A stretch of DNA of 64,000 bases from Patescibacteria group bacterium (GCA_943355005.1 CALRDV010000002.1:397-64396); one strand, 5' to 3'; positions 6,743 to 47,090 are shown, counted from the stretch's first letter. Notes: a model not told the origin generated them from the sequence alone. Translations and numbers: made by a program.

Positions 6743-7900
6743 TTATACAATTACCCCGCCACCCAAACACTCTCCGCCTTCTGTGTAGAATACTGCACTC
6801 TGTCCGGCCGCGATTCCTCGAATATCTTTATCCAGGATTATCGTCAGCCCATCTCCCATTTCCATCCCCCTTGCGCCAATTAATTCCCCACCATGACGAA
6901 TTCTCACCAAGAGATCATCCATATTCCATTTAGTTTTCGATATTTTATTTATCTCCCCCACCTCAAACTGATCCTCCATGGCGTCATCGGATTCTCCCAC
7001 CACCAATTCATTTTTTTTCGCATCTTTGGAAATCACATAAAATATTGGCGTCTCATTGTCATTGCGAGTTTCGTACTCGAACCGTGGCAATCCAGGAATT
7101 ATTTTATCCTTAGATAATTTTTTTTGAGCCGTTGGATTCATTACCCATCCACCTCTTTGTCCAATGGTATAGAACCACACTCCATCATGAGTTCCCACCT
7201 CATTTCCCTCGGTATCCAACACTTTTCCAACTTGCTTCTTTAATCTTCTGGCCAGAAATTCTTTCACTTCCACATTCCCTACGAAGCAAATTCCCTGACT
7301 ATCTTTGCGGTCGGCCACACTAAGCTTTGCTTCTTTAGCCAATTCTCGCACTTTACCCTTTTCAAAGTCTCCAAGGGGAAAAAGCACACGAGCCAGCTCT
7401 TTCTGAGTCAATTTCCATAGAAAATATGTTTGATCTTTATGTTTATCTTTCGGTATCAGAAGACGTCCCCCGGCCAGTTTTGCATAATGTCCTGTCGCAA
7501 TAAAGTCAAAGCCATTCTCCATCGCCCAGTCAAGGAAAAGTCCAAACTTAATCTCACTGTTACACAATACATCCGGGTTCGGAGTTCTCCCGGCTTCATA
7601 CTCCTCATAAAAATATTTAATCACTCTTTGGTTATATTCTTCGGAGAAATCCAAAACCTTAAAGGGAATTCCCAATTCCAAGCAAGTTTGCAAAGCCATC
7701 TGTCTATCCTCATCGGCTCTACAGCCATTTTTCTTTATCCATTCTTCCCTTGTAATACCATCTTTTTCAATCTCACTTTTCGGTGGCCAGCAATACAAGT
7801 GAACTCCAGTCACGTCATAACCCGCCTTTTTCAAAAGCAACGCACTTACGGCGCTATCCACGCCTCCGGAAATCCCTACAGCCACTTTTAATTGATTCAC
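6743..7900 (-). CDS. mnmA: tRNA-specific 2-thiouridylase MnmA (GTG start), carrying an in-frame type-B repeat insertion (peptide IIPGLPRFEYETRNDNETPIF).
   Basis: N-terminal PP-loop SGGVDS, conserved MnmA core, ORF uninterrupted through repeat 7058-7096. Confidence 0.85.
   Translation of the reverse strand: MNQLKVAVGISGGVDSAVSALLLKKAGYDVTGVHLYCWPPKSEIEKDGITREEWIKKNGCRADEDRQMALQTCLELGIPFKVLDFSEEYNQRVIKYFYEEYEAGRTPNPDVLCNSEIKFGLFLDWAMENGFDFIATGHYAKLAGGRLLIPKDKHKDQTYFLWKLTQKELARVLFPLGDFEKGKVRELAKEAKLSVADRKDSQGICFVGNVEVKEFLARRLKKQVGKVLDTEGNEVGTHDGVWFYTIGQRGGWVMNPTAQKKLSKDKIIPGLPRFEYETRNDNETPIFYVISKDAKKNELVVGESDDAMEDQFEVGEINKISKTKWNMDDLLVRIRHGGELIGARGMEMGDGLTIILDKDIRGIAAGQSAVFYTEGGECLGGGVIV
7058..7096. 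repeat. Type-B element inside mnmA (GTCATTGCGAGTTTCGTACTCGAACCGTGGCAATCCAGG).
   Basis: Repeat family member; translated in frame. Confidence 0.85.
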
Positions 7901-7937: not shown

Positions 7938-8624
7938 TTATAAATTTTCAAATATCACACCTAGCCCACCTTTTGGCAAAAATCTCAAATCATCAGTCAT
8001 GAACCTTGGCATATCGGCATTAATAATGTCACCGGCGGCTTCACAGCCTAAAACCGTTCTTTCTCTTAGATGTTTCCCAATTCCATTTGTACCCTGTCTT
8101 CGAACGCCCTCTTGTTGATCTTCGGCCGCCATTATCCACATTAGTTTATTCACAACAGAAAAAATTGCCTCCATCCTCACAATAGTCTCCTTTTTCCAAT
8201 CGCCACCTGGCGTCTTCCCATCACCACAATATTTGTTGGGAACAAAACCAAATCCTATTTTGGGTAATCGCTTCACATAACTTTCAATAAAGTCTTGTAT
8301 CTCGGAATCTTCAACCAAGGGTTTAACCCCCTCACCAAAAATACTTCCACCTGGCACTTTATTAAGCTCCAAGACTACTTTTTTCATCAACTCTACAATC
8401 CTTTCTTCACCAAATTTTTCAAAAACAGTTTTAGCCTGTTCACTTAGATTTGCCTTTCCTTCAATATTAGTAAAATCAATCCCTGTTTTTTTAAGTAGTT
8501 CTCTTTTCCAAACCCTCTCTGGTTCACCCAAGAAAACAACTTCACCAGTCTTTATTTTTTCCTCCACCAGGTTTCCAATGAACCTCAGTTGCTCCTTAAG
8601 CTCAGTAGGTTGTTTTTCCATCAT
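7938..8624 (-). CDS. Hypothetical protein, 228 aa; paralogous to 8674..9342 (shared ...N.L..IMAxxD... region).
   Basis: ORF; local similarity VNKLMWIMAAEDQ vs LNELTYIMASSDE. Confidence 0.5.
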   Translation of the reverse strand: MMEKQPTELKEQLRFIGNLVEEKIKTGEVVFLGEPERVWKRELLKKTGIDFTNIEGKANLSEQAKTVFEKFGEERIVELMKKVVLELNKVPGGSIFGEGVKPLVEDSEIQDFIESYVKRLPKIGFGFVPNKYCGDGKTPGGDWKKETIVRMEAIFSVVNKLMWIMAAEDQQEGVRRQGTNGIGKHLRERTVLGCEAAGDIINADMPRFMTDDLRFLPKGGLGVIFENL

Positions 8625-8673: not shown

Positions 8674-9342
8674 TTAATTCTTCCCTAATACTTTTACCAA
8701 AGCCTCTAAGCCCTTATCAGAAATTCCTCTAATATGCTCTCTGTATTCAGGTGTGCCATACCTTTTAGAATTTTCAGGAAAAGTCGCTCCACCGCTCTCT
8801 AGTCCTTTAATGATTTGAGACCTCAGATTGTCTGTAGCTGAAGATTCATTTTGACGAATTTTTGCCTCAAGTTCATCTGAAGATGCCATAATATAAGTCA
8901 ATTCATTTAAAATTGACATTATCATCTCAATATTTTTAGTGGTATTTTCCTGCCAATTTCCCTCATTTTCCGCTGATAAATATTTCTGTGTCGAAAAATC
9001 AAAAACAAACTTATCCGATTGTTCTGACATAAACTGTCTAGTGAAGTCTTCAATCCCTGGCAATTTGACATCACTATAAACCTGTTTAATAACATCAATC
9101 ACCATTTCAGATGTTTTGTCTTTTCCAAATACTCTTACCAGATTTGCTGCATCCTCAGCTGCACTTCCAAAAATAATTGCCGATTCCAACTTTGCTCCAT
9201 TATCCACCATTGCAGCCCTTAAACTATTTCTTTCTGGCTCTTTTATTATTATGTCATCAGCAGCCGCAACAGCTTTCTCCATATTTTGAGCAATAAATCC
9301 TAAAGCTTCGGGTGATAACTCAACTTTTGGTTCTTGATTCAT
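8674..9342 (-). CDS. Hypothetical protein, 222 aa (paralog of the preceding gene).
   Basis: ORF; paralogous motif. Confidence 0.5.
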   Translation of the reverse strand: MNQEPKVELSPEALGFIAQNMEKAVAAADDIIIKEPERNSLRAAMVDNGAKLESAIIFGSAAEDAANLVRVFGKDKTSEMVIDVIKQVYSDVKLPGIEDFTRQFMSEQSDKFVFDFSTQKYLSAENEGNWQENTTKNIEMIMSILNELTYIMASSDELEAKIRQNESSATDNLRSQIIKGLESGGATFPENSKRYGTPEYREHIRGISDKGLEALVKVLGKN

Positions 9343-9360: not shown

Positions 9361-11061
9361 TCATTTAAAAATTTCCATATTTCTCTCACACAGCTCATAC
9401 CCCGGCCTCTGCACCAGGCACTCTTCAAACTTTTTCTTCGCCTCTTCCTTTTTTCCCGTCCAAGAATAATAAAGTCCCCAGTTATTTAGTAGCTCTGGAT
9501 ATTTCGGATATATTTCATCCGCTTTCTCCATAAATTTTTTGGCATTCTCCAAATCATTCTTCATCAGATATATCGCCGCCTTATTACTCTGCGCCATCAC
9601 ACTTCCTGTCGCCACCCCACCATCATGCAAAAACAGTCTCTCTTGAGACAACCAGTCCAAATTCCTGACAAATGTCCTCCCCGCCAACAAAAATAATATT
9701 GCAATAAATATCGGTGCAGAAGAATAGCCAAACAACCGCACGGACCATGTACATGAGAGCCGAAGGGGATCCCGCTTTTCAGCGGGACGAAACAGTAACG
9801 CGGGAGTACGGTTTTTGGCGGTCTTCGAACCGATTAACATTGCAATCATCACCACCCCCAAACTAGGCAAAAACCAAAGTCTCTCTCCAAATATAGTTCC
9901 AATCGGAAACAAAATATTCCCGGTAATCAATATCGGACCCCAAAACATCACCATCCCCACCATCGTCATTCCGAGCGACCTGCCCGCTGTGGCGGGAGTC
10001 GAGGAATCCCCCTCCACCCCATCAGTCATTCCGGGCTTGACCCGGAATCTATATAAATAAATACAACTTAATGCAATCATCACCAGCCCCACCACCACCC
10101 TCCAATCAGTCCAGCTCTCCACCAACTTAATTTGGTTATACGAATAGTCATAGCTAAGATTTATTGGAAAGAGAACTTTCCCGACTCCAAAAGGAATCAA
10201 AGCTATCCCGTTTATCATTCTTTTTTCCGCACTAACAAACTTAAGAGGATTCTCCACCATCGTCGCTCTTGTTTCCATTCCACCTCCACCCAGCACCAGT
10301 AGCCTCATCATCCCAAATCCCAACATTGCCATTATCACCAGTATCATCGCCGCTGTCTTTTCACTTGCGGAAGTTCCATTCGATGACTTGTCATTCCCGA
10401 CCTGATCGGGAATCCATCCGGAGACTCCACCACCTCTAATAAATATCAAATACATTAATATCACCACTCCCACCACCGCCGTCTCTTTCGACAGCATCGC
10501 CAAAAACAAAAATAACGCACTCACATCCCATCTATTCTTAAAGTTTTCCAGAATAGCCAAAAGCATAAATCCAAGTGAAAGCATCTCCGCCCTTCCCACG
10601 ATATTATTCACCACCTCGGTATGAATCGGCATCACCACAAACACCAACGCCCCCCAAAACGCCAACTTCTCTCGCCATTTGTCATTGCGAATCTCGTAGT
10701 CGAGCCCTGCCTGCCGGCAGGCAGGTGTGGCAATCCAGGAACCATCAAGAAACTTTCTCATCACCCCATACACCAGCCAACACACCCACGAATATAGCAG
10801 CACATTACCAAGCCGAAATCCCCAAGCCCCCTTACCGGTTATTAAAGAATTCAAATAGAAACTAAAGCTCGTCATCGGTCTATACAGAGATTTCTCCTGA
10901 TCCAAATAGTAGTACGGTCTCGTCCACACTTTTATCAAGCTTTCCACTCTTCCCATCCCCGGATCTCCCGCAATCACTTTTAGGTCGTCCTGCACAAATC
11001 CACCAAAAATACTCACAAAATACAAAGCAAACGCAGATAAGAAAATTACCCAACCCTTCAT
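9361..11061 (-). CDS. Multi-pass membrane GT-C-like glycosyltransferase with C-terminal TPR repeats (TMTC/PMT-like; DD motif in first loop). The ORF stays intact across five repeat-element insertions.
   Basis: N-terminal TM helices with FVQDDLKV motif, C-terminal TPR (AIYLMKNDLENAKKF...YYSWTGKKEEAKKKF); repeat-derived peptides LDYEIRNDK, WIPDQVGNDK, KPGMTDGVEGDSSTPATAGRSLGMT. Confidence 0.65.
   Translation of the reverse strand: MKGWVIFLSAFALYFVSIFGGFVQDDLKVIAGDPGMGRVESLIKVWTRPYYYLDQEKSLYRPMTSFSFYLNSLITGKGAWGFRLGNVLLYSWVCWLVYGVMRKFLDGSWIATPACRQAGLDYEIRNDKWREKLAFWGALVFVVMPIHTEVVNNIVGRAEMLSLGFMLLAILENFKNRWDVSALFLFLAMLSKETAVVGVVILMYLIFIRGGGVSGWIPDQVGNDKSSNGTSASEKTAAMILVIMAMLGFGMMRLLVLGGGGMETRATMVENPLKFVSAEKRMINGIALIPFGVGKVLFPINLSYDYSYNQIKLVESWTDWRVVVGLVMIALSCIYLYRFRVKPGMTDGVEGDSSTPATAGRSLGMTMVGMVMFWGPILITGNILFPIGTIFGERLWFLPSLGVVMIAMLIGSKTAKNRTPALLFRPAEKRDPLRLSCTWSVRLFGYSSAPIFIAILFLLAGRTFVRNLDWLSQERLFLHDGGVATGSVMAQSNKAAIYLMKNDLENAKKFMEKADEIYPKYPELLNNWGLYYSWTGKKEEAKKKFEECLVQRPGYELCERNMEIFK
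9713..9836. repeat. Copy A of an about 90-125 bp dispersed repeat (GGTGCAGAAGA.TAGCCAA....TTTTTGGCG.GGT.TTCGAACCGAT), in frame inside CDS 9361..11061.
   Basis: Aligns with 13960-14072 and, at the termini, with 49734-49822. Confidence 0.75.
9965..10009. repeat. Type-C element GTCATTCCGAGCGACCTGCCCGCTGTGGCGGGAGTCGAGGAATCC, in frame in a CDS.
   Basis: GTCATTCC...GGAATCC termini with internal palindrome. Confidence 0.8.
10025..10064. repeat. Type-A element plus TATATAAATAA extension, in frame in a CDS.
   Basis: GTCATTCCGGGCTTGACCCGGAATC followed by TATATAAATAA, as at 12944 and 15437. Confidence 0.8.
10390..10415. repeat. Type-A element GTCATTCCCGACCTGATCGGGAATCC, in frame in a CDS.
   Basis: Identical core to the copies at 12919, 15412 and 47065. 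Confidence 0.85.
10681..10739. repeat. Type-B element with a nested 20-bp perfect palindrome (CCTGCCTGCCGGCAGGCAGG), in frame in a CDS.
   Basis: Equals the 2513 copy plus an internal palindromic insertion. Confidence 0.8.
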
Positions 11062-11189
11062 CTCTTAATTGTAATCTGAAACAATCTACTTAAGGTTTCT
11101 GTTTCCTCGTCGCCATCCTCACCTGCTCTCCAAACTCGTTACTTTACTCTTATGCAACATACCCCAATGTAACATGAATTACATATTTG

Positions 11190-11639
11190 CTACTTAAAAA
11201 TTATTTTTTCAATTCCATTACCAAAAAGTTTGTCAACCGCCTCAATCCCCTCTGCTCTTATTCTACTTTCGGCTGTTTCAGTACCAAACTTAACCTCTTT
11301 AATTGCTAATTGAAATGCATCTGTATACACACTCATTAATCGCCTAAATTCATCTTCACCATATAATGCTTTTTTTTGCTTACCCCACTCTTGATCTACA
11401 ACACACGTTTCAGCATCGGTGAAATCTCCTTTAAAAAGCAATTCAGAGGCCTTATTAGCCTTATCAACTATTTGTTTACGAGTTTCGTCTTGCGGAAAAG
11501 AATCTGGGTGCATTATTCCAATACCTGCAAAAAACGCCTCTCTCACATCTCTTTTGCTACTAAAGTCGGGTGACGCAACAATTTCATCTTGAATCTGTTC
11601 CGCAATCCCTTTATTTTCTACAACTGCATCTAAAGCCAT
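11190..11639 (-). CDS. Hypothetical protein, 149 aa.
   Basis: ORF; shares an identical about 30-bp upstream leader with the next gene. Confidence 0.5.
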   Translation of the reverse strand: MALDAVVENKGIAEQIQDEIVASPDFSSKRDVREAFFAGIGIMHPDSFPQDETRKQIVDKANKASELLFKGDFTDAETCVVDQEWGKQKKALYGEDEFRRLMSVYTDAFQLAIKEVKFGTETAESRIRAEGIEAVDKLFGNGIEKIIFK

Positions 11640-11668
11640 ACAAAAATTCTACAACAAATTACATCAAT
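11640..11668 (-). promoter_or_regulatory. Duplicated leader/promoter (revcomp GATGTAATTTGTTGTAGAATTTTTGT immediately before ATG); TAGAAT -10-like motif 6-7 nt from the start codon.
   Basis: Near-identical copy at 11912-11940 in front of gene 11681..11911. Confidence 0.5.
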
Positions 11669-11680
11669 AAACAATTTTAT

Positions 11681-11911
11681 TTATCTTCTACCTTCCGGAC
11701 TGAATCCAGGTATAGCCTCAACACTGACACTTTTACCTTCTCTTCTAAGTTGTGCATCAACGCCTATTTGATTTTCTCTATCTAGCGCCCGTCTTTCTCG
11801 CACAGCAGCAGCATCTTCCCTTAATTTTTTCTCCCAAGGGCTTAAATCATTTAACGACGCCATTCTTTCTGCATATTCCTTACGCAATTGAATAGGTCCT
11901 TTTACAGTCAT
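11681..11911 (-). CDS. Small hypothetical protein, 76 aa, Arg/Glu-rich.
   Basis: ORF preceded by the duplicated leader. Confidence 0.45.
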   Translation of the reverse strand: MTVKGPIQLRKEYAERMASLNDLSPWEKKLREDAAAVRERRALDRENQIGVDAQLRREGKSVSVEAIPGFSPEGRR

Positions 11912-11940
11912 ACAAAAATTCTACAACAAATTACATCACT
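11912..11940 (-). promoter_or_regulatory. Second copy of the duplicated leader/promoter.
   Basis: Identical 28-30 nt to 11640-11668. Confidence 0.5.
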
Positions 11941-11969
11941 TACCTAATCAGATATCTGTCATCTGAGAC

Positions 11970-12923
11970 CTACCTCACCATCTCCCTCGCCACATTTATT
12001 TCCGGGAATGCTTTTTCAAACCACTTGAATTGTGCAGTTCTATTCACTTCAAAGATTCTCCACTGCTTAGCCTCTTCATCCCAAGCCACATCCAGCCCTG
12101 CAAAATCAGCCTTAAGAACTTTCGTTGCCTCGACACTTAGTCTTTGCAATTCTGCCATCTGCTCTTTACTAAACTTCGGTTTAATTTTCGATAGCTCTTC
12201 CTGCTGAGATAGCACTTGGAACTTATCTTTTTGTCTGTGTTTCATCATCCCCAATATCTCTCCATTTAGCACCAACACTCTATACCATCTTCGTACTTTC
12301 AAAACAGGCTGAATCAAGACGTCTCCCTCACTATATTTCTGAGAAAGTTTTACCAGGCGGGTCAGTGATTCTGCTAGTTTCACATTTTTTCCATGAGATC
12401 CAAATCTCGCCTTGACCATTACCGGCACAAATTCTCCTTTCCGTTTAGATAGTATTTCCAAATATCTTTTCCATCCTCTAGCCCCACGGAAAGATACAAA
12501 CGGAATTACCGGTAGTCCCGCTTCAGCCAGCAATATTCCTTGTTCAAGTTTCCCCATAAGTGGAAACATCTTAAAGCTTTCCCCATTGATCACAGAAATA
12601 TCTCTCTCTGAATTTTTCGTTTGCTCCAAGAACTCCAAAATCACCGACTTCACCCCTAGCATACTTTCCCCACCTCTTTTAGTCGCGGCTCTCGGGATAA
12701 TCAAATCATATTCACTCAGTTTTTTTCCGGTTCCCAAATCTACAATTGGCTTACCCATCTTGCTTACACCAATTCGCACATGTTCATAGTTCACCTTATC
12801 CACGGAATATCCCAAATTACTCGCCTCTTCGGCTAATCTCTTGGGTTCATACTCCCCTCTAAATCTAGTCAATATTAATATCTTTTTCATTACTTTTCTT
12901 GATGTCGTCTTAATATCTGTCAT
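11970..12923 (-). CDS. ATP-grasp ligase, RimK/alpha-L-glutamate-ligase-like. The true start may be the internal ATG at 12890 (MKKILIL); the extreme N-terminus of the track ORF overlaps a repeat element.
   Basis: ATP-grasp signature regions (…EFVPVMVKARFGSHGKNV…, …FAGLDVAWDEE…WRIFEVN); about 300 aa. Confidence 0.7.
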   Translation of the reverse strand: MTDIKTTSRKVMKKILILTRFRGEYEPKRLAEEASNLGYSVDKVNYEHVRIGVSKMGKPIVDLGTGKKLSEYDLIIPRAATKRGGESMLGVKSVILEFLEQTKNSERDISVINGESFKMFPLMGKLEQGILLAEAGLPVIPFVSFRGARGWKRYLEILSKRKGEFVPVMVKARFGSHGKNVKLAESLTRLVKLSQKYSEGDVLIQPVLKVRRWYRVLVLNGEILGMMKHRQKDKFQVLSQQEELSKIKPKFSKEQMAELQRLSVEATKVLKADFAGLDVAWDEEAKQWRIFEVNRTAQFKWFEKAFPEINVAREMVR

Positions 12924-12958
12924 TCCCGACCTGATCGGGAATCTATATAAATAATTCC
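12919..12958. repeat. Type-A element plus TATATAAATAATTC extension.
   Basis: GTCATTCCCGACCTGATCGGGAATC TATATAAATAATTC. Confidence 0.85.
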
Positions 12959-12974
12959 TTAATTTGATTTTTAA

Positions 12975-13000
12975 TTTTTTGGCGCGGTTCGAACCGATAA
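12975..13000. repeat. Partial copy (3' terminus) of the long repeat: TTTTTTGGCGCGGTTCGAACCGATAA.
   Basis: 25/25 identity to 14047-14071. Confidence 0.7.
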
Positions 13001-13013
13001 AATATTTTGAATA

Positions 13014-13922
13014 TCATTTTGAAAATTTCTTCACACAATACTCAAGTATTAATCTCGCTGCATTGGTTTTAGTCCTCTTCTCAAACACTTTAAATTGCGG
13101 CGCCTCATTCACTTCAATTATGTAAACTTTTCCGGTTTTGGAGTCTCTCACCAAATCTGTTCCCGCCACTTCTACCCCCAGCACTTGAGCCGCTCTCTCT
13201 GCCGTCTCCACCACATCGCTTGGCAGTTCCACCACCATCGATTTACCCTGACTGCGATTCAAGATTAGCTTCTCTTCTTTTACTTGTCTCTTAAAACCTC
13301 CAATGCATTTATAGCCCACTGTCATCAACCTAAAGTCTCCATCATTTCGAATATATTCCTGAATCAAAAATCCCCTAAAAATTGGCATTTTCTTATTTTC
13401 TGCTTTTGCCTTTTCTTTTCTGTTTTCCAATACATGTTTTAGTTTTTCCAGATCACTCAGTTCTCTCACCCAAAAAGTGCCCATGCCATGCCTTCCCCCG
13501 GCCGAAAGTTTAACAATCGCTGGAAGTTCCCAATTTTTAAGTTCCCTTTCCAGATCCTTAAAGGTTTCTACGTAAGCAGATTTAGGATAAAGCACCCCGG
13601 CATCCAGCAGTTGCCAAGTCATCACAGATTTAAATCGTCTCAAGGGTCCTTCGGTTTTCAAATATTCATCTACCGCCGGGATATTATGTTTACGTGCATA
13701 AAGTTGCAGTAGTTTGCTCCATTCCAGTTCAGATCCCACAGACCGGAAGTACCAGCCATCGAAATCTCTCATATCGGTTTCTCCAAACATAATTCTGTCA
13801 CCTACCACCCGAAGTTTTCTGTACTTTACAGGCACCAGTTCAATCCCCAAATCCACCGCCTCCTCCTGGAATCTTTTTTCACTTTCATCAAACGTCAATC
13901 TATGTAGGTATGCTATTTTCAT
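13014..13922 (-). CDS. ATP-grasp ligase, RimK-like (second paralog).
   Basis: ATP-grasp motifs (…AIVKLSAGGRHGMG…, …VAGTDLVRD…YIIEVN); 302 aa. Confidence 0.7.
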   Translation of the reverse strand: MKIAYLHRLTFDESEKRFQEEAVDLGIELVPVKYRKLRVVGDRIMFGETDMRDFDGWYFRSVGSELEWSKLLQLYARKHNIPAVDEYLKTEGPLRRFKSVMTWQLLDAGVLYPKSAYVETFKDLERELKNWELPAIVKLSAGGRHGMGTFWVRELSDLEKLKHVLENRKEKAKAENKKMPIFRGFLIQEYIRNDGDFRLMTVGYKCIGGFKRQVKEEKLILNRSQGKSMVVELPSDVVETAERAAQVLGVEVAGTDLVRDSKTGKVYIIEVNEAPQFKVFEKRTKTNAARLILEYCVKKFSK

Positions 13923-13959
13923 CTCAGTTAATTAAATCATTATTAAAACATCTTTGAAG

Positions 13960-14072
13960 GTGCAGAAGACTAGCCAACAAACCGCACGGAAGCTGTACAT
14001 AGGAGCCGAAGGGAATCCCACTATTGCGGGACGAGATAGTTACGAGTGAGTACGGTTTTTGGCGCGGTTCGA
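13960..14072. repeat. Copy B of the long dispersed repeat (intergenic).
   Basis: Collinear with 9713-9836, with the same termini. Confidence 0.75.
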
Positions 14073-14095
14073 ACCGATAAGAAGTTTTCATATTT

Positions 14096-15400
14096 TTATT
14101 TTCTAATCTTTACGAGCCCTGGATCCACCACAAACTCTCTCAGGTCACGGCGCCCAATTAATAATTGTCTTCTCAAGTTTTTACGGTCAGTCACATTAGC
14201 TCTGGTTTTGATTATTCTCCCCTTAAGTTTTATTGTTAAGGCGATCAAAGATCTTTCTTCTATCCCCAAAGAATTTTTTACTTTCTTAGTCCACAGAATA
14301 TTGTCCGCAGTTAACAAACCCAGCTCTTTAGCCATCTGTGCATCAATAGAAGTACTCTTTGCCCCCGTATCAATTTTGGCCCGAATTTCTATCATCTTTT
14401 TTTTGCCATTTCTTACACTTACATTCTCAAATATCCCAATTACCGGCTTCTCTTCTCCTGTAAATTTTACCCGGCTGGCAAACTTACTAGCAAACAAAGC
14501 CTTTCCAATCTTCACACCTTTGATGGCATCATCCACTTCAAGCCCCTCAACTCTCTCCAATCTTCTCCTGAGTCCTGTCATATTAGCGAGTTGGATAGAG
14601 AGTCCAGGCTGGTCATTCAATTCCAGCACCACCGGTCCTTTTTCCTCATCAATCAGCATATCCACCGAAAGATAATTAAGCTTCGAAATCATTTGAGTTT
14701 CCACTGCCATTCTCAAAATCTGATTCCAGTAAGGTACCGAAATTCCATTCACTTTTATATTAGTGTCCGGGAAAAGTTTTACTGAAGTATTTTTGTAAAC
14801 CCCATGAGTAGTAATTCCTGTAGCCATATCAATTCCCAAGCCAATAGCCCCTTGATGAAGGTTGGCTTTTCCATTGCTTTCATCGGTCGGCAGCCTTAGC
14901 ATCGCCATCACCGGGATTTTGTTATAGACAATCACTCGAACATCGGGAGCACCTCCCACCGCGAGCTTCTTAAACTTCGGATGAATCTTAATCCTCTCCT
15001 CTATCATCGCCTTATCCGGCAGATTATTATGAGAGAATTTTCCCTCGGCAATATCCTGAGAATGTAATGTTAAATCATCGGCAGTGAGATATTTACCATC
15101 GACAGTCAGGAACAATCCCTTTTCTTTTGCGGGCTTTTTTATAAGAAGAATACCTTGACCACCAAATCCCTGAACCGGCTTGATAGCAAAACCATCTGTC
15201 AACTTAGTCCAATTAAAAGCTCTTGCTTCGTTAACATTATGAATAATTCCCAATAACCTAGGATGCCCAACATTAGCTTTCTTGAGCATTTTCTTAGTCA
15301 AAAGCTTATCATCGGCCTTTTGACGAGCATTCTTCTTATTAAAAGAAAGATAATCTGCCGATCTGGCGTTTAGTCCTAATATGTCATTAAATCTTGGCAT
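14096..15400 (-). CDS. Alpha-L-glutamate-ligase-like ATP-grasp domain fused to a C-terminal retropepsin-like putative ATP-dependent Zn-protease domain (PF05618-like, RAKIDTGAKSTSID).
   Basis: N-terminal ATP-grasp (…FAIKPVQGFGGQGILLI…, LELNDQPG); C-terminal about 140 aa with a DTGA aspartyl-protease-like motif; 434 aa. Confidence 0.65.
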   Translation of the reverse strand: MPRFNDILGLNARSADYLSFNKKNARQKADDKLLTKKMLKKANVGHPRLLGIIHNVNEARAFNWTKLTDGFAIKPVQGFGGQGILLIKKPAKEKGLFLTVDGKYLTADDLTLHSQDIAEGKFSHNNLPDKAMIEERIKIHPKFKKLAVGGAPDVRVIVYNKIPVMAMLRLPTDESNGKANLHQGAIGLGIDMATGITTHGVYKNTSVKLFPDTNIKVNGISVPYWNQILRMAVETQMISKLNYLSVDMLIDEEKGPVVLELNDQPGLSIQLANMTGLRRRLERVEGLEVDDAIKGVKIGKALFASKFASRVKFTGEEKPVIGIFENVSVRNGKKKMIEIRAKIDTGAKSTSIDAQMAKELGLLTADNILWTKKVKNSLGIEERSLIALTIKLKGRIIKTRANVTDRKNLRRQLLIGRRDLREFVVDPGLVKIRK

Positions 15401-15411
15401 TATTTTTCATT

Positions 15412-15450
15412 GTCATTCCCGACCTGATCGGGAATCTATACAAATAATTC
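15412..15450. repeat. Type-A element plus TATACAAATAATTC extension.
   Basis: GTCATTCCCGACCTGATCGGGAATC TATACAAATAATTC. Confidence 0.85.
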
Positions 15451-15451
15451 A

Positions 15452-16318
15452 TTATTTATTCAATAATTTCCGGAATCTCCAAATTTCTGATAATCTCAAA
15501 CCTTTGTATTTTCCAATCAAAATATCTACCACCAGTATCAAAATTACGGAAATTTCCGGCTGTAACAATACTTGTGTCTGTATCCAAGGAGAACTTATTA
15601 GTTTGTAAGCAATAAAAGCCAAAACTACAGTTTCAAGCGTCATGGAGACAGAAGTAGCCAAACTTCTGGTAATCTGTGCTTCGACAAAAGTTTCAGCCAA
15701 AAGTACAAAGATCATAATTGGGAAAATACCGACAGTCATCAATTTATCGAGTCCTATCATTGGCGACATGATTAAAAGTGCCAAAACAGCAATGGAAATC
15801 AGCCAAATCAAAACCGCCAGTTTAGGTAAATATGGAATCTTTATCTTCTTAATAGCCATACGTCCAAACACTGCTGCCAAAAGAATAAAAGATAGCAAAA
15901 CTAGTCCCACTACTCCACCGGTAGAAACAAAGGCCACCGAAAGTAAAGCTGGCACAATCATTCCAAAGCCACTCACACCTACCACCTGCCTCGAAAATGC
16001 CACCAAGGCTGCGACCAAAGGAAACAGGAATAAAAGCACCAAAGTGTTAGGAGAAACCCCGTCAGCCACAGCTTTTCTAATGGCGAGCTTCAAGGTGTTA
16101 CTCACCCACCAGCCGGTAACCTTTTGAGTCTTCATCAGTTTAACCAATCTATCTCCCTCTTCTTTAGGTACGGTTAAATCAATATCTGAAGGTGTTGGAG
16201 TGGCCGAAACCAAAGCTGTTGGGGAGATTACAGGCACGACAGTTTTTTCCACAGCAAAAGTTCCGAAAGGAAGAGCTAAAAACAGGAGTATTGCCAGAAA
16301 CATCGCTACTTTTTTCAT
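15452..16318 (-). CDS. Signal-peptide plus about 7-TM membrane protein. Possible partner of the ATP-grasp/Zn-protease system.
   Basis: N-terminal signal sequence, multiple hydrophobic helices; immediately upstream of and co-oriented with the ATP-grasp genes. Confidence 0.5.
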   Translation of the reverse strand: MKKVAMFLAILLFLALPFGTFAVEKTVVPVISPTALVSATPTPSDIDLTVPKEEGDRLVKLMKTQKVTGWWVSNTLKLAIRKAVADGVSPNTLVLLFLFPLVAALVAFSRQVVGVSGFGMIVPALLSVAFVSTGGVVGLVLLSFILLAAVFGRMAIKKIKIPYLPKLAVLIWLISIAVLALLIMSPMIGLDKLMTVGIFPIMIFVLLAETFVEAQITRSLATSVSMTLETVVLAFIAYKLISSPWIQTQVLLQPEISVILILVVDILIGKYKGLRLSEIWRFRKLLNK

Positions 16319-16393
16319 GTCCCATATTTTACCTCAGAATACCCTCCACCGCCACTCGTCAAGACGGCCAAAACATTCTATAGTCATATTAGG

Positions 16394-16987
16394 ATGAAAA
16401 AATCAATTTTCACCATAATTTTTGCCCTAGTTACGATTCCGGTGATTTTTATCATCGCAATCACTCTCACACACCTAAACTCCAAAGCTTTTCAAGTAGT
16501 AATTGAGCCTATTCCCCTCAAACCCACAGTTTTTGTTGAACCCACTCCAAATCCGACAATCTTTGTAAGAGAAACTCCCCAACCAACCAAAGATTTAACA
16601 ACAATCTCTCCCATACTCCCCACCACCTCCCCCGTTTCGAATATGTCGAACATCATCAGTGTCTCACCGACTCCGACTTCTACTACCAACTCCGCCCCGA
16701 CAGTTACCACAGACTCTCTCCCACCTGCAACTCTAGGAAGTTCGTATTACACCACCATCAAAGCTTCAGACAATAATCTTTCTGATACTTTAGAAATGTC
16801 TATTTCAGGTCTACCGTTTGGACTCGTCCAAGGACCATGCAGCACACCTCTTAGTGGCGGCGAAATTATTTGTACTATCACAGGAGTTCCTTTTGACTCA
16901 GGAATCTACACTATTCAACTTAAAGTTTCAGATGGTCACATCAGTAAAGTATCCAAAAATATTACTCTAATGATTAAGTCAAACTAA
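16394..16987 (+). CDS. Membrane-anchored surface protein with Pro/Thr-rich linker and C-terminal He_PIG-like (putative Ig) domain.
   Basis: N-terminal TM anchor; PT-rich low-complexity region; C-terminal YTTIKASDNN...GEIICTITGVP...IQLKVSDGH. Confidence 0.6.
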   Translation: MKKSIFTIIFALVTIPVIFIIAITLTHLNSKAFQVVIEPIPLKPTVFVEPTPNPTIFVRETPQPTKDLTTISPILPTTSPVSNMSNIISVSPTPTSTTNSAPTVTTDSLPPATLGSSYYTTIKASDNNLSDTLEMSISGLPFGLVQGPCSTPLSGGEIICTITGVPFDSGIYTIQLKVSDGHISKVSKNITLMIKSN

Positions 16988-17012
16988 ATCCCGCCTTTCG
17001 GCGGGATTTATT
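16986..17012 (+). terminator. Rho-independent terminator (AAATCCCGCCTTTCGGCGGGATTTATTC).
   Basis: GC hairpin with TTTCG loop then T-rich tract. Confidence 0.6.
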
Positions 17013-17032
17013 CTTACTAACTCTCGTTTCTA

Positions 17033-17845
17033 TTATTGTGCTTGAGAGAACATATCGTCATGCATCTCCCAGAACTTACCTTGCTCTCCTGCACACAAAG
17101 CGGCTTCAGCAGCTTTTTGAGCACTGGCATGGAAGGATAAAGGGAAACTCTTGTACTCCAAGCTAATCTTTCCGGCATACTTCTGCATTATGGCAGTCAT
17201 GGTCGGAAACGCTCTTTCACAGAAAGGACATTCAAAATCTGTAAACTCTACTACTTTGATTTTGGCATTCTTTTCACCAGATACATATCCTGGTGTCAAA
17301 TTTAACTTAACTCTTTTTCCTGCTTCACCTAAAGCAAGTGCAGCCTTGTCCCCACTACCATCTTTTAATTCGGCATCAATTACTGCTTCAAAAGAAGATT
17401 GAGGTTGCGCACCTACCAGCATTACACCATTAATGAAGAAGGATGGAGTTCCGGAAACTCCCAAATCAGCACCCTCTTTTTGTTCTACAGATACTCTGGC
17501 TGCTGTAGTGCCACCATCCAGACACTGGTCAAATTTATTTCCATCCAAGCCGAATTTCCTTGCACGCACTTTCAAACTGGCTACATCAAGCTTTCTCTCT
17601 GGAGCAGCGTTGGGATTGGCTGCGACCGGAGCAGGAGCTGTAGTACCTTGAGCTTTTTTCAATCCTTCGACTTGCGCCGACAATCTACCTATATAGAATG
17701 ATGCCACGATAAGCAGCACTATCATCATCGGAGTGTAGTATGCAGTCAGATTTTTACTACCCATTTTTGTAACTTCAGCCATCATAGTTTCGGGCATGGC
17801 CATCTGTGCCCTTGTTTTTATTTTTTTAACGGATTTTTTTACCAT
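17033..17845 (-). CDS. DsbA-like thiol:disulfide oxidoreductase (thioredoxin fold, CPFC active site) with N-terminal membrane anchor. The track ORF extends to 17944.
   Basis: FTDFECPFCERAF motif; TM helix near the N-terminus. Confidence 0.7.
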   Translation of the reverse strand: MVKKSVKKIKTRAQMAMPETMMAEVTKMGSKNLTAYYTPMMIVLLIVASFYIGRLSAQVEGLKKAQGTTAPAPVAANPNAAPERKLDVASLKVRARKFGLDGNKFDQCLDGGTTAARVSVEQKEGADLGVSGTPSFFINGVMLVGAQPQSSFEAVIDAELKDGSGDKAALALGEAGKRVKLNLTPGYVSGEKNAKIKVVEFTDFECPFCERAFPTMTAIMQKYAGKISLEYKSFPLSFHASAQKAAEAALCAGEQGKFWEMHDDMFSQAQ

Positions 17846-19638: not shown

Positions 19639-22092
19639 TCAGGCAACCACAAAGTTAATTGTTTTTCCTTTAATATAAATTATCTTTTTAATTTCTCCAG
19701 CCAATAAATATTTCTCCAATTTTTCAATCTTCTTAACTGTATCTACAACAGCTTCCTCAGAGGCATCATTCTCCACTTCTATTGTCTCTCTCATTTTTCC
19801 ATTTATTTGGACAGAAATAGTTATCACATCGGTCATCAAATATTTTTCCTCAAATTTCGGAAATTCTTGAGCATGGACACTAAACTCTCCACCCAATAAA
19901 TTCCAAAGTTCTTCTGTTACAAAAGGAGCAAACGGAGCCAGCACCTTTACGACTCTGCCCAAATCTTCACTGCTTACCTCCGCTCCACTACGAAGCAACG
20001 CGTTTGTTGTCTCCATTAGTTTCGCAATTACTGTGTTGAACTTAAATTGAGACAAATCTTCTCCAGCACCTTTTATTAATTTATGAATCAACCTGGAACT
20101 CTCCAAGTCGGTAACCACATACTTTCCGGCGTTCTCAGTCACAAGCCTAAATATTTTCTCGATAAATCTTCTAACGCCCACCAGTGATCTTTCATTCCAC
20201 GCCATAGTCGAATCAAATGGTCCCATAAACATCATGTAGGTCCTCAGGACGTCCGCTCCGTAGGTTTCGGCCACTACATCGGGTACGATTACATTCCCCT
20301 TACTTTTACTCATTCTGTTGCCATCTGGTCCCAGCAGTACCCCATGAGACAGTCTCTTTTTATATGGCTCAGGATAAATTTTTGGCACCACCCCCAAGTC
20401 CCACAAGAACTGATAGATAAATCTTGAATAAAGTAAATGCAAAGTGTTATGTTCATCTCCACCCACATAGACATCCACCGGCATCCAGTACTCCATTTTT
20501 TCTTGACTGGCTAACATTTCTCTATTTTTTGGGTCACAATATCGAAGAAAATACCAGTCACTTCCGGCCCAGTTTGGCATCGTGTCGGTTTCTCTTTTTG
20601 CTTTTCCACCACAATTCGGACAAGTCGTCTCGACCCATTCTTTTATATTGGCGAGTGGTGACTCTCCTGTGTCGGTCGGCTGGTACTTCTCGACCTCCGG
20701 CAAAACCACTGGCAAATCTTTTTCTGGAACTGGTATCCACGACCCTGTCATTCCGGGCTTGACCCGGAATCCATCCCCCTCCGGTACACAATTCTCACAC
20801 CAGATCATCGGAATGGGCTCCCCCCAATAATGCTGTCTAGAAAAAATCCAATCCCTTAAGTGGTATGTCACTGCTTTTTCTCCAAAGCCCTTTTCTTCTA
20901 TAAGACTGATTATCAAATCATCCGGCACAAATTCAGAATCTATCGGCAAATTATATTTATCGGCAAAAGCCTTATCCCTATCATCGTGTGCTGGCACCGC
21001 CATAATCGCTCCGGTTCCGTAACCCATGAGAACATAATCACTTATCCAAATTGGAATTTCTTTATTGTTAAGCGGATTTACGGCATAAATTCCCGTAAAG
21101 ACGCCTGTCTTCGCTCTGGTGTCATCAGTTCGCTCAATCTCACTCCTCCCCTTCACCTCATCAAGGTATCTTTTAATGTCATTCCTGGCTTGACCAGGAA
21201 TCCATCCAATTAATTCCGAATTCTCCATCAAATGCTTCACCATCGGATGCTCCGGAGCCAATACCAAGAAAGTTGCCCCCGGTAAAGTATCCGGTCTCGA
21301 AGTAAACACCTCAAGAATATCAGTTTCACTCTTCCTCCCTGTCATTCCGGGCTTGACCCGGAATCCATCTGGAGTTTTTATTTCAAATTTTATCTTTGCC
21401 CCCTCTTTCTTCCCTATCCAATTAACCTGTGCCGCCTTAACTTTTTCGATAAAATCAGTATCTTTCAAACCTTCGAGCAATCGATCTGCATAATCCGTGA
21501 TTTTCACTACCCATTGTGAGATAGTTCTCTTTTCCGTTTCAGATCCGCATCTTTCACATTTACCATCAATCACCTCTTCATTAGCCAAACCAATTTTATC
21601 TTTGGGGCACCAATTAATCGGCATCTCTTCTTTATGAGCCAATCCTTTTTCAAAAAGTTTTACAAATATCCATTGCGTCCATTTGTAGTAGTCCGGCATT
21701 GTTGAGTTCACTTCTCTATCCCAATCAAAAGAAAATCCCAGTTTCCTCATCTGCATCCGGAAATTGTCAGTCACTTCTTTGGTTATTTCTTTTGGATTTT
21801 TTCCGCTCTTTATCGCATAGTTCTCCGTTGGAAGCCCGAATGCGTCCCATCCCATGGGGAACATCACATTTTTTCCCATCATCCTTTGGTATCGGGCATA
21901 GACATCGGCTCCAGTCATAGCAAACCCATGTCCCACATGTAGCCCGCTTCCGGATGGATAAGGAAACTCGGTCAGCATATAGAATTTTTGTTTATCTGCT
22001 TCAAAGTCCAGACCTTTATAGCCGGCAAAACCGTCATACTTACCTATCCACTTCTTCTCAATTTCCTTAAAATCATAGCTTGCCATACGCAT
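19639..22092 (-). CDS. leuS: Leucyl-tRNA synthetase with three in-frame type-A repeat insertions. The likely start is MRMASYDF (ATG at 22092 or 22086); the track ORF start at 22110 is the SD translated.
   Basis: Class I HMGH/KMSKS motifs (…PSGSGLHVGHGF…, …KMSKSKGN…), conserved LeuRS N-terminus YDFKEIEKKW; inserts GFRVKPGMTGRKSE, WIPGQARNDIKR, GFRVKPGMTGSWIP. Confidence 0.9.
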   Translation of the reverse strand: MRMASYDFKEIEKKWIGKYDGFAGYKGLDFEADKQKFYMLTEFPYPSGSGLHVGHGFAMTGADVYARYQRMMGKNVMFPMGWDAFGLPTENYAIKSGKNPKEITKEVTDNFRMQMRKLGFSFDWDREVNSTMPDYYKWTQWIFVKLFEKGLAHKEEMPINWCPKDKIGLANEEVIDGKCERCGSETEKRTISQWVVKITDYADRLLEGLKDTDFIEKVKAAQVNWIGKKEGAKIKFEIKTPDGFRVKPGMTGRKSETDILEVFTSRPDTLPGATFLVLAPEHPMVKHLMENSELIGWIPGQARNDIKRYLDEVKGRSEIERTDDTRAKTGVFTGIYAVNPLNNKEIPIWISDYVLMGYGTGAIMAVPAHDDRDKAFADKYNLPIDSEFVPDDLIISLIEEKGFGEKAVTYHLRDWIFSRQHYWGEPIPMIWCENCVPEGDGFRVKPGMTGSWIPVPEKDLPVVLPEVEKYQPTDTGESPLANIKEWVETTCPNCGGKAKRETDTMPNWAGSDWYFLRYCDPKNREMLASQEKMEYWMPVDVYVGGDEHNTLHLLYSRFIYQFLWDLGVVPKIYPEPYKKRLSHGVLLGPDGNRMSKSKGNVIVPDVVAETYGADVLRTYMMFMGPFDSTMAWNERSLVGVRRFIEKIFRLVTENAGKYVVTDLESSRLIHKLIKGAGEDLSQFKFNTVIAKLMETTNALLRSGAEVSSEDLGRVVKVLAPFAPFVTEELWNLLGGEFSVHAQEFPKFEEKYLMTDVITISVQINGKMRETIEVENDASEEAVVDTVKKIEKLEKYLLAGEIKKIIYIKGKTINFVVA
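20747..20772. repeat. Type-A element inside leuS.
   Basis: GTCATTCCGGGCTTGACCCGGAATCC; translated as PGMTG... on the minus strand. Confidence 0.85.
21178..21203. repeat. Type-A element inside leuS.
   Basis: GTCATTCCTGGCTTGACCAGGAATCC; translated WIPGQARND. Confidence 0.85.
21341..21366. repeat. Type-A element inside leuS.
   Basis: GTCATTCCGGGCTTGACCCGGAATCC. Confidence 0.85.
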
Positions 22093-31711: not shown

Positions 31712-31737
31712 GTCATTCCTGGCTTGACCAGGAATCC
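31712..31737. repeat. Type-A element between aspS and glyQS.
   Basis: GTCATTCCTGGCTTGACCAGGAATCC. Confidence 0.85.
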
Positions 31738-47064: not shown

Positions 47065-47090
47065 GTCATTCCCGACCTGATCGGGAATCC
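47065..47090. repeat. Type-A element GTCATTCCCGACCTGATCGGGAATCC.
   Basis: Identical to the 10390 copy. Confidence 0.85.

Follow-up and report, generated by a model that had tools for sequence, protein, structure and literature searches.

Four co-oriented genes on the minus strand of a 64,000-nucleotide (nt) stretch of Patescibacteria DNA (GCA_943355005.1, CALRDV010000002.1:397-64396; here called the window, with positions counted from its first base) are, by homology, one operon-type module and the Patescibacteria form of the Rlo system of Pseudomonas aeruginosa. In the direction of transcription they encode an RloB-like seven-transmembrane (7TM) membrane protein (15452..16318), a protein in which an RloC-type ATP-grasp ligase is fused to an RloA/RimB-type retropepsin (14096..15400), and two RimK-family ATP-grasp ligases, ligase 1 (13014..13922) and ligase 2 (11970..12923). 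This identification is much firmer than the mechanism, for which a membrane-docked machine that would make and trim poly-alpha-glutamate-like peptides is the reading that we consider moderately probable.

In P. aeruginosa, rloA, rloB and rloC form one operon and encode, respectively, a secreted retropepsin, a protein composed of an inactive transglutaminase and a 7TM region, and an ATP-grasp protein (Lormand et al., mBio 2025, PMC12239564). Three RloA paralogues are redundantly required for a normal shape, for biofilm formation and for tolerance of hypo-osmotic conditions and of beta-lactams, and the RloA proteases cut runs of at least 8 glutamates. Deletion of rloB or rloC suppresses the phenotype of the protease-less strain, and RloB and RloC therefore act upstream of the protease. 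D48 of RloA is catalytic, while K46, R114 and R137 make pseudosymmetric contacts with polyglutamate, and mutation of R114 or R137 abolished function. RloB was reported to be 96% proteobacterial, and fusions and Patescibacteria are unmentioned in that study (PMC12239564). A sequence-only reading of the window had called the ligase, protease and 7TM triad functionally uncharacterised, a description that is outdated given its homology to RloA, RloB and RloC and its relationship to the Rim system (PMC11957791).

Domain composition of the module

The four genes, together with two small open reading frames (ORFs) downstream of them, were all found on the minus strand with the boundaries that the sequence-only reading had drawn, and the proteins of the window are 80-88% identical to those of Candidatus Collierbacteria (Microgenomates, Patescibacteria/Candidate Phyla Radiation, CPR). 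The window is part of a metagenomic contig of 255 kb (ENA ERZ27280309, k141_1878606). PF14402, PF14397, PF05618 and PF08443 all exceed their Pfam cutoffs in the module proteins, and the nearest NCBIfam models by name are RloB, RloA1-3 and RimB. The ATP-grasp lysine/glycine loop and the D...E-x-N metal motif are retained in all three ligases, none of which contains a hydrophobic segment. All three had been described as RimK-like, which is correct for the two that belong to the RimK family (PF08443) but not for the fused one, which is RloC-type (PF14397/TIGR02291).

The ATP-grasp domain of the 434 amino acid (aa) fused protein (14492..15388, residues 5-303) matches PF14397 (ATPgrasp_ST) over residues 19-285 with 224 bits against a cutoff of 31.4, and TIGR02291 over model positions 10-313 of 317 with 278.7 bits, which is below the hypothetical-equivalog cutoff of 314.2. 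This domain has an invariant K74/Gly-rich loop and an invariant metal-binding motif, D247...E260-x-N262. In an AlphaFold2 model of the fused protein the ATP-grasp core is confident, as is the beta-rich protease domain (predicted local distance difference test score, pLDDT, ∼84-91), and the modelled ligase domain is closest in fold, among PDB structures, to ArgX/LysX, RimK, cyanophycin synthetase and PsnB, all of which elongate peptides or proteins at a carboxylate. The top 50 Foldseek matches to the model were all to ATP-grasp proteins with none for the protease domain, and the latter was therefore examined by comparing a domain profile with PDB sequences.

The retropepsin-like aspartic peptidase domain (14102..14449, residues ∼318-433) lies in the C-terminal ∼120 residues, which match PF05618 with 42.6 bits against a cutoff of 27. 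The fusion that had been proposed, and for which domain searches were to decide, is thus supported. The domain is aspartic and retropepsin-like, and the accompanying label of Zn-protease is a misnomer of historical origin. The protein falls below the RloA1-3 equivalog cutoffs (31 against 210 bits) and that for RimB (NF052261; 24.7 against 200 bits). The catalytic D344 (codon 14369-14371) is within KIDTGA, and IGRRDL is found near the C-terminus. The domain profile recovered the RloA-type structures 9g58/9g59 and Legionella 2pma (E ∼2e-5, in two blocks), and when 20 is added to the 9g58 numbering to give the published RloA positions, K342, D344, R383 and R406 align with RloA K46, D48, R114 and R137. 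All four are invariant in 55 family members. Compared with RloA and 2pma, ∼27 aa are missing between the DTG and the R114 equivalent, and the flap region is reduced.

The maximum KD19 hydropathy of the fused protein is 0.92, with no hydrophobic segment and no signal peptide, and it is therefore predicted to be cytoplasmic. Its best 120 homologues are all 363-460 aa long, nearly all of them ∼430-460 aa, and every one has the ATP-grasp domain and most the protease domain. The ligase-protease fusion is the standard architecture across Patescibacteria.

The 288 aa 7TM protein matches PF14402 (7TM_transglut) with 89.3 bits against a cutoff of 25, in agreement with the partner named in the sequence-only reading. 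It aligns only to positions 313-507, the membrane half, of the NCBIfam RloB model (NF052267; 57 bits, cutoff 900), leaving the first 312 positions unmatched, and the N-terminal periplasmic inactive transglutaminase domain of RloB is absent. Residues 1-22 form an N-terminal hydrophobic signal or anchor. A conserved stretch of ∼65 aa that follows is extracytoplasmic, residues 90-272 (nt 15503-16051) make up the seven helices, and the C-terminal tail, GKYKGLRLxEIWRFRKLL, is basic and invariant. Conservation was judged across 38 sequences, and charged residues within the helices are also conserved. The AlphaFold2 model of this protein is poor (pLDDT 58, predicted template modelling score 0.37) and served for the helix count only, and a profile search of the PDB found no relative of solved structure. 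The basic tail and the positive-inside loop charges are consistent with a cytoplasmic C-terminus. This agrees with the 7TM-ligase fusions described below, where the ligase comes after the last helix, placing the C-terminus and the attached ligase on the cytoplasmic side.

The two further ligases expected after the fused gene were both recovered. Ligase 1 (302 aa) matches PF08443 with 60 bits and TIGR00768 with 85.6 bits (cutoff 143.4); the 317 aa ORF of ligase 2 matches PF08443 with 42 bits, PF18030 (Rimk_N, the RimK pre-ATP-grasp N-domain) with 33 bits and TIGR00768 with 63.7 bits. Scores for the RimK equivalog NF007764 are 40.6 and 19.5 bits, respectively, against a cutoff of 331. In an alignment with Pseudomonas RimK (7qys), ligase 1 retains the VK...GG loop and AGTDLV...IIEVNEAP, and its orthologues lie directly after the fused gene in Collierbacteria. 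Ligases 1 and 2 are only ∼29% identical over 115 residues, and on this basis are old paralogues rather than the result of a recent duplication. E. coli RimK aligns to ligase 2 over its full length, but weakly, from residue 13, and orthologues align from residue 10-15, so that translation probably begins at M12 (12890) and yields a protein of 306 aa. The ATG annotated as the start of ligase 2 (12923) falls inside a palindromic repeat copy described below. Ligase 1 is 280 aa long in the public annotation, while orthologues align from residue 1 of the 302 aa ORF, and the deposited start is probably too far downstream.

Conservation and fusion of the module components

The neighbourhood was examined by tblastn and clustering of called ORFs in 80 loci of species-representative genomes, each containing a gene for a relative of the fused protein. 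Sufficient sequence was available upstream in 66 loci and downstream in 53. The 7TM gene is directly upstream on the same strand in 63 of the 66, and was found by tblastn in the remaining three. Co-occurrence of the 7TM and fused genes is thus far beyond chance, and the module is recurrent, as had been claimed. Within the 5 kb downstream, 49/53 loci contain one or more additional ATP-grasp genes and 38/53 contain two or more. A metallopeptidase of the MATCAP family (PF08014) with an intact HExxH motif is encoded downstream in 12/53, and all 53 carry an extra ATP-grasp gene, a MATCAP-like peptidase or both. By record title, the loci belong to Microgenomates, Parcubacteria/Paceibacteria, Moranbacteria, Jacksonbacteria, Dojkabacteria and Peribacteria. 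Many titles ('uncultured Pseudomonadales', 'Gammaproteobacteria', 'Spirochaetia', 'Woesearchaeota'; e.g. L002, L006 and L010) are unreliable, and their taxon labels are probably wrong, because the proteins are 50-88% identical to those of Collierbacteria, with 60-88% for the Pseudomonadales and Gammaproteobacteria titles, and synteny is shared.

Domain fusions were surveyed by searching 1.8 billion representative proteins, which yielded 2141 relatives, and architectures were assigned for the best 150 of these. The hidden Markov models used were built from our own alignments and are narrower than those of Pfam, with selected matches scanned against Pfam, and the counts are therefore approximate. 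Ligase alone accounts for 46, ligase with retropepsin for ∼51, and ligase, retropepsin and MATCAP in a protein of ∼800 aa for ∼43. A 7TM region precedes an RloC-type ligase in 7 (e.g. P0223 and P0248), and one protein each combines transglutaminase, 7TM and ligase (P0255), ligase, retropepsin and a second ATP-grasp domain (P0140), and ligase, retropepsin and YdjC. Every component of the cluster is somewhere fused to the RloC-type ligase, which is strong evidence that the parts form one physical and functional unit.

Accessory genes differ between lineages. In Paceibacteria-like loci (L057-L077; e.g. 9263-10225 in L062) a MATCAP-family PF08014 peptidase gene comes after the fused gene. The triple-domain MATCAP fusions of ∼800 aa occur in many metagenomic proteins (P0131, P0143), and one of them, EKD49309.1, carries the annotation 'ketopantoate hydroxymethyltransferase'. 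In seven loci (L065, L068, L071-L074 and L077; e.g. 3440-5383 in L068) a gene just upstream of the 7TM gene encodes a 640 aa transglutaminase-like protein that is membrane-anchored and carries Cys, His and Asp in the expected motifs, as an apparently intact triad, and a 118 aa holin-family protein with four helices accompanies it. Some lineages may therefore provide the transglutaminase part of RloB as a separate protein. Three Collierbacteria-like genomes carry, directly after the second RimK-like gene, a gene for a 228 aa protein with ACNT and GCTE motifs (L006 11426-12112, L020 7723-8415 and L048 2787-3500). Its weak match to Asp/Glu racemases (25 bits, cutoff 31) hints at a D-amino-acid involvement in related loci. 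Among the accessory families of related loci, no Pfam match was found for the 257 aa family C54 or for the C-terminal extension of C19, a 590 aa RimK-like protein.

The fusions also bear on whether the ligases, instead of making a free peptide, add amino acids to a glycopolymer precursor of the cell wall or surface, for instance a peptidoglycan stem or a polysaccharide, with the 7TM protein as flippase or acceptor scaffold. PF14397 is named 'sugar-transfer associated ATP-grasp' in Pfam, the YdjC-like domain fused to the ligase-protease in one representative is a carbohydrate deacetylase domain, and genes for Ddl and a Mur ligase lie ∼7-9 kb from the module; the cell-shape and beta-lactam phenotypes of Rlo mutants would also fit. 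However, among the 80 loci the module has no linked gene for a glycosyltransferase or a lipid carrier, its conserved partners (retropepsin, MATCAP-like) are peptidases with specificity for peptide tails, and the polyglutamate-binding residues of RloA are conserved, which leaves a glycopolymer role decidedly improbable.

A gene for leucyl-tRNA synthetase (LeuRS) and a DsbA-like gene upstream, and MnmA downstream, also recur in many loci. Flanking translation genes would suit a modification system of RimK/RimB type acting on the ribosome. In that system RimK adds a polyglutamate tail to ribosomal protein S6, and RimB, a cytoplasmic retropepsin, trims it (Little et al., JBC 2025, PMC11957791). 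RimB also stimulates RimK, and free poly-alpha-glutamate was detected only with both present; a RimB-RimK hybrid (RimBK), with the protease N-terminal, exists in some orders (PMC11957791). The module resembles Rim in pairing a cytoplasmic retropepsin with an ATP-grasp enzyme of the alpha-L-glutamate ligase family (the two being fused in RimBK), in a setting where Rim ligase and protease share polyglutamate chains, and in having two genes with RimK-family domains, one including the RimK N-domain. The Rim and RimBK proteins are characterised, but the differences are considerable. Here the protease is at the C-terminus of an RloC-type ligase, not at the N-terminus of a RimK-type one, and the obligatory 7TM membrane partner is absent from Rim. 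Scores are far below the RimK (41 and 20 against 331 bits) and RimB (25 against 200) equivalog cutoffs, and some lineages are without a nearby RimK-like gene but have a MATCAP-like peptidase. No rpsF was detectable in the window or adjoining the module with an approximate E. coli S6 sequence as query. The LeuRS, DsbA-like and MnmA neighbours look like ordinary synteny. S6 modification is consequently rather unlikely, and no relevant link between RimK-type systems and Patescibacteria was found in the literature searched.

Repeats, small ORFs and flanking genes

Repeat elements had been noted between the genes, and two families were located in the spacers. A 25-nt palindromic repeat, GTCATTCCNGNCNTGANCNGGAATC, is present in 10 copies in the window, all in a single orientation, where none is expected by chance (2474-2498, 10025-10049, 10390-10414, 12919-12943, 15412-15436, 20747-20771, 21178-21202, 21341-21365, 31712-31736 and 47065-47089). 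The plus-strand copy at 15412..15436, GTCATTCCCGACCTGATCGGGAATC, fills the 51-nt spacer between the 7TM and fused genes, and an identical plus-strand copy at 12919..12943, in the spacer before ligase 2, supplies the in-frame upstream ATG at 12923. Five of the 10 are within coding sequence, two in a TMTC-like gene and three in the LeuRS gene, where they coincide with in-frame insertions absent from orthologues (DGFRVKPGMTGRK, GWIPGQARND and GDGFRVKPGMTGS). The second family (core GGTTCGAACC) comes just after the stop codons of the fused gene and ligase 1. One copy (core TTTTTGGCGCGGTTCGAACCGATAA; families D4/D5) is at 14026..14088 on the plus strand, in the 173-nt spacer after the fused gene, and its part at 14056-14088 corresponds to a short copy at 12976..13008 after ligase 1, and a related copy is inside the TMTC-like gene (9782-9844). 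Another short repeat family, starting TTGTCATTGCGA, is found at 2511-2555, 7056-7100 and 10679-10723.

The spacer between the 7TM and fused genes is 3-20 nt in related genomes against 51 nt here, and the orthologous genes abut or overlap in L003 (6261-7127, 7131-8432, 8438-9346 and 9346-10263). Because the same four genes are this close in related genomes, the intergenic repeats are regarded as later insertions into an ancestrally compact operon. A promoter and terminator scan of 11000-17100 found sites no more numerous than in shuffled sequence, and is therefore uninformative on operon boundaries.

The two small ORFs downstream of ligase 2 (11190-11639, 149 aa, and 11681-11911, 76 aa, both on the minus strand) are unrelated to each other. 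The duplicated leaders ascribed to them are a 36-nt direct repeat (11631-11666 and 11903-11938; 34/36 identical), each copy of which ends in the ATG of a small ORF and carries a TAGAAT hexamer 6 nt ahead of it. The leader is promoter-like, so that each small gene would have its own duplicated promoter, with an mRNA that is possibly leaderless. L002, the closest relative, has a duplication of the first 42 codons of the 76 aa ORF as well.

The sequence-only reading had suggested that these small proteins could be substrates of the ligases. Such a pathway would be of the kind that produces ribosomally synthesised and post-translationally modified peptides, with the 76 and 149 aa proteins as precursors, and it draws on their position immediately downstream on the same strand and on the fact that some ATP-grasp enzymes modify ribosomal peptides, with PsnB among the fold neighbours of the ligase domain. 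However, the 76 aa ORF recurs in only 1/80 related loci and just two weak relatives are known for the 149 aa ORF (E 1e-7 and 3e-3), each ORF has its own promoter-like leader, the C-termini (...EGRR and ...IIFK) are basic or hydrophobic and not acidic, and the orthologous operons are too compact to accommodate a conserved small ORF. A precursor role is thus very improbable, and the two ORFs are best regarded as separate lineage-specific genes outside the module.

Searches for S6 (rpsF), transglutaminase, MATCAP-like and racemase-like genes across the 64-kb window found none. None of the six proteins matches a PADLOC defence model at E ≤ 0.01, and a known anti-phage defence system was rejected as an identification. 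Further downstream, 7938-8624 and 8674-9342 (minus strand) encode tandem paralogous acidic proteins of 228 and 222 aa, ∼25% identical, which have no family match and recur downstream of the module in few related loci. A complete bacterial 16S rRNA gene is present at 738-2235 on the minus strand (Rfam, 1374 bits), and several short ORFs listed around it are artefacts of this gene.

Possible function of the module

The module shares with Rlo the same three families, a PF05618 retropepsin with its DTG and polyglutamate-binding Lys and Arg residues, PF14402, and PF14397/TIGR02291, as well as the order of 7TM gene then ligase gene and tight operon linkage. The two differ in that the protease here is at the C-terminus of the ligase, lacks a signal peptide and is predicted to be cytoplasmic, while RloA is secreted and stands alone; the protease domain is ∼27 aa shorter close to the flap; the 7TM protein is without a transglutaminase domain; and two RimK-family ligases are added. 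The host, a Patescibacteria lineage, is also different. The Rlo families themselves are already known, and what is distinct here is the clade-wide fused cytoplasmic protease, the reduced 7TM partner and the extra ligases.

Under the poly-alpha-glutamate reading, the cytoplasmic ligase-protease would dock on the cytoplasmic face of the 7TM protein, probably on its C-terminal tail. The ATP-grasp domains would then add amino acids, most likely L-glutamate via alpha-peptide bonds, to a carboxylate primer to give an acidic oligo- or poly-peptide, and the three different ligases might share this work, for example by priming and elongation or by adding different residues. A homodimer of the retropepsin, with a basic channel of polyglutamate type, would cut the chains, setting their length and releasing them, much as RimB trims polyglutamate and is needed for efficient production of free poly-alpha-glutamate by RimK. 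The fusion would in that case be a productive synthase and not a futile cycle. Finally, the 7TM protein would pass or present the product at the cell envelope, aiding envelope or osmotic homeostasis. The choice of polyglutamate is supported by the invariance of the residues with which RloA cleaves it, by the fold neighbours of the ligase domain, which act on C-terminal carboxylates, and by the RimK-type partners, which belong to the alpha-L-glutamate ligase family.

Several points weigh against this scheme. No biochemical activity is known for RloC-type ligases or RloB-type 7TM proteins, those of Pseudomonas included, and the residue added, the primer and the product are all inferred. The RimK-like proteins are far below the curated RimK equivalog and subfamily cutoffs. 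The Pseudomonas protease is secreted while this one is predicted to be cytoplasmic, so the spatial logic of Rlo is not simply transferable, and it could seem futile to combine synthesis and cleavage of one polymer in a single polypeptide. The ∼27 missing flap-proximal residues include the position of RloA R92, and specificity could differ. Nothing shows transport by the 7TM protein, for which the structural model is poor and no relative has a solved structure. The accessory enzymes vary by lineage (MATCAP-like peptidase, methyltransferase, YdjC fusion, racemase-like gene, separate transglutaminase-like protein), so that plain polyglutamate may be too simple a description of the product.

The single cytoplasmic polypeptide would also suit an osmotic buffer that works without export. 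The 7TM protein would sense membrane tension or osmolarity and switch the fused enzyme between polymerising glutamate, which leaves fewer osmolytes, and hydrolysing the polymer. The RimB study argues that polyglutamate synthesis drains the glutamate pool and shifts osmolality (PMC11957791), Pseudomonas Rlo mutants have osmotic phenotypes, and the extracytoplasmic transglutaminase domain has been lost from the 7TM protein here. However, the proteases that act on the pathway product in Pseudomonas are secreted, so that the product must reach the periplasm there. The 7TM protein retains its conserved extracytoplasmic segment and charged intrahelical residues, some relatives encode the membrane-anchored transglutaminase-like protein beside the 7TM gene, and there is no evidence for a sensor function. 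A purely cytoplasmic buffer is for these reasons unlikely.

Other known systems offer partial likenesses. LysX and ArgX, which ligate an amino acid to the C-terminal Glu of the small protein LysW, are among the best structural matches of the modelled ligase domain, but scores are far below the LysX cutoff and no LysW-like carrier or lysine or arginine biosynthesis gene is linked. In the Pgs/Cap system of Bacillus, glutamate is polymerised by a machine at the membrane and brought to the cell surface, and a hydrolase or transpeptidase is associated with this machine. The system is built from unrelated families (PgsB is Mur-ligase-like and not ATP-grasp) and forms gamma linkages, and is an analogy only. 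In the system that modifies tubulin tails, ATP-grasp ligases (TTL/TTLL) write tails at acidic C-termini and peptidases (MATCAP/TMCP; PMC10499314) erase them, and relatives of the module carry a PF08014 MATCAP-family domain adjoining or fused to the ligase-protease. No MATCAP-like gene is present in the window, and this likeness is one of functional analogy and shared domain families, not of orthology.

The tubulin comparison suggests a bolder alternative to a simple polyglutamate synthase, one which we think has a small chance of being correct. The module and its variable partners, with up to three or four ATP-grasp ligases, a retropepsin endopeptidase, a MATCAP-family carboxypeptidase and sometimes also a methyltransferase or an active-looking transglutaminase, would constitute a bacterial 'peptide-tail code', in which the ligases write mixed amino-acid tails on a specific membrane or envelope protein, or on a partner of the 7TM protein, and the endo- and carboxypeptidases erase them. 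If true, this would be a prokaryotic counterpart, and a possible evolutionary source, of the TTLL/MATCAP tubulin-tail system.

The CPR fusions provide natural 'Rosetta-stone' evidence on the biochemical job of Rlo. The joining of the RloC-type ligase to protease, 7TM, RimK-like ligase and MATCAP domains argues that RloC makes an acidic peptide at the membrane, with ligase and protease acting as one unit. For work in vitro, the soluble 434 aa ligase-protease may be easier to handle than the Pseudomonas system with its three compartments. Rather than being essentially proteobacterial, modules of Rlo type are conserved in the genome-reduced Patescibacteria, where genes that are kept tend to matter.

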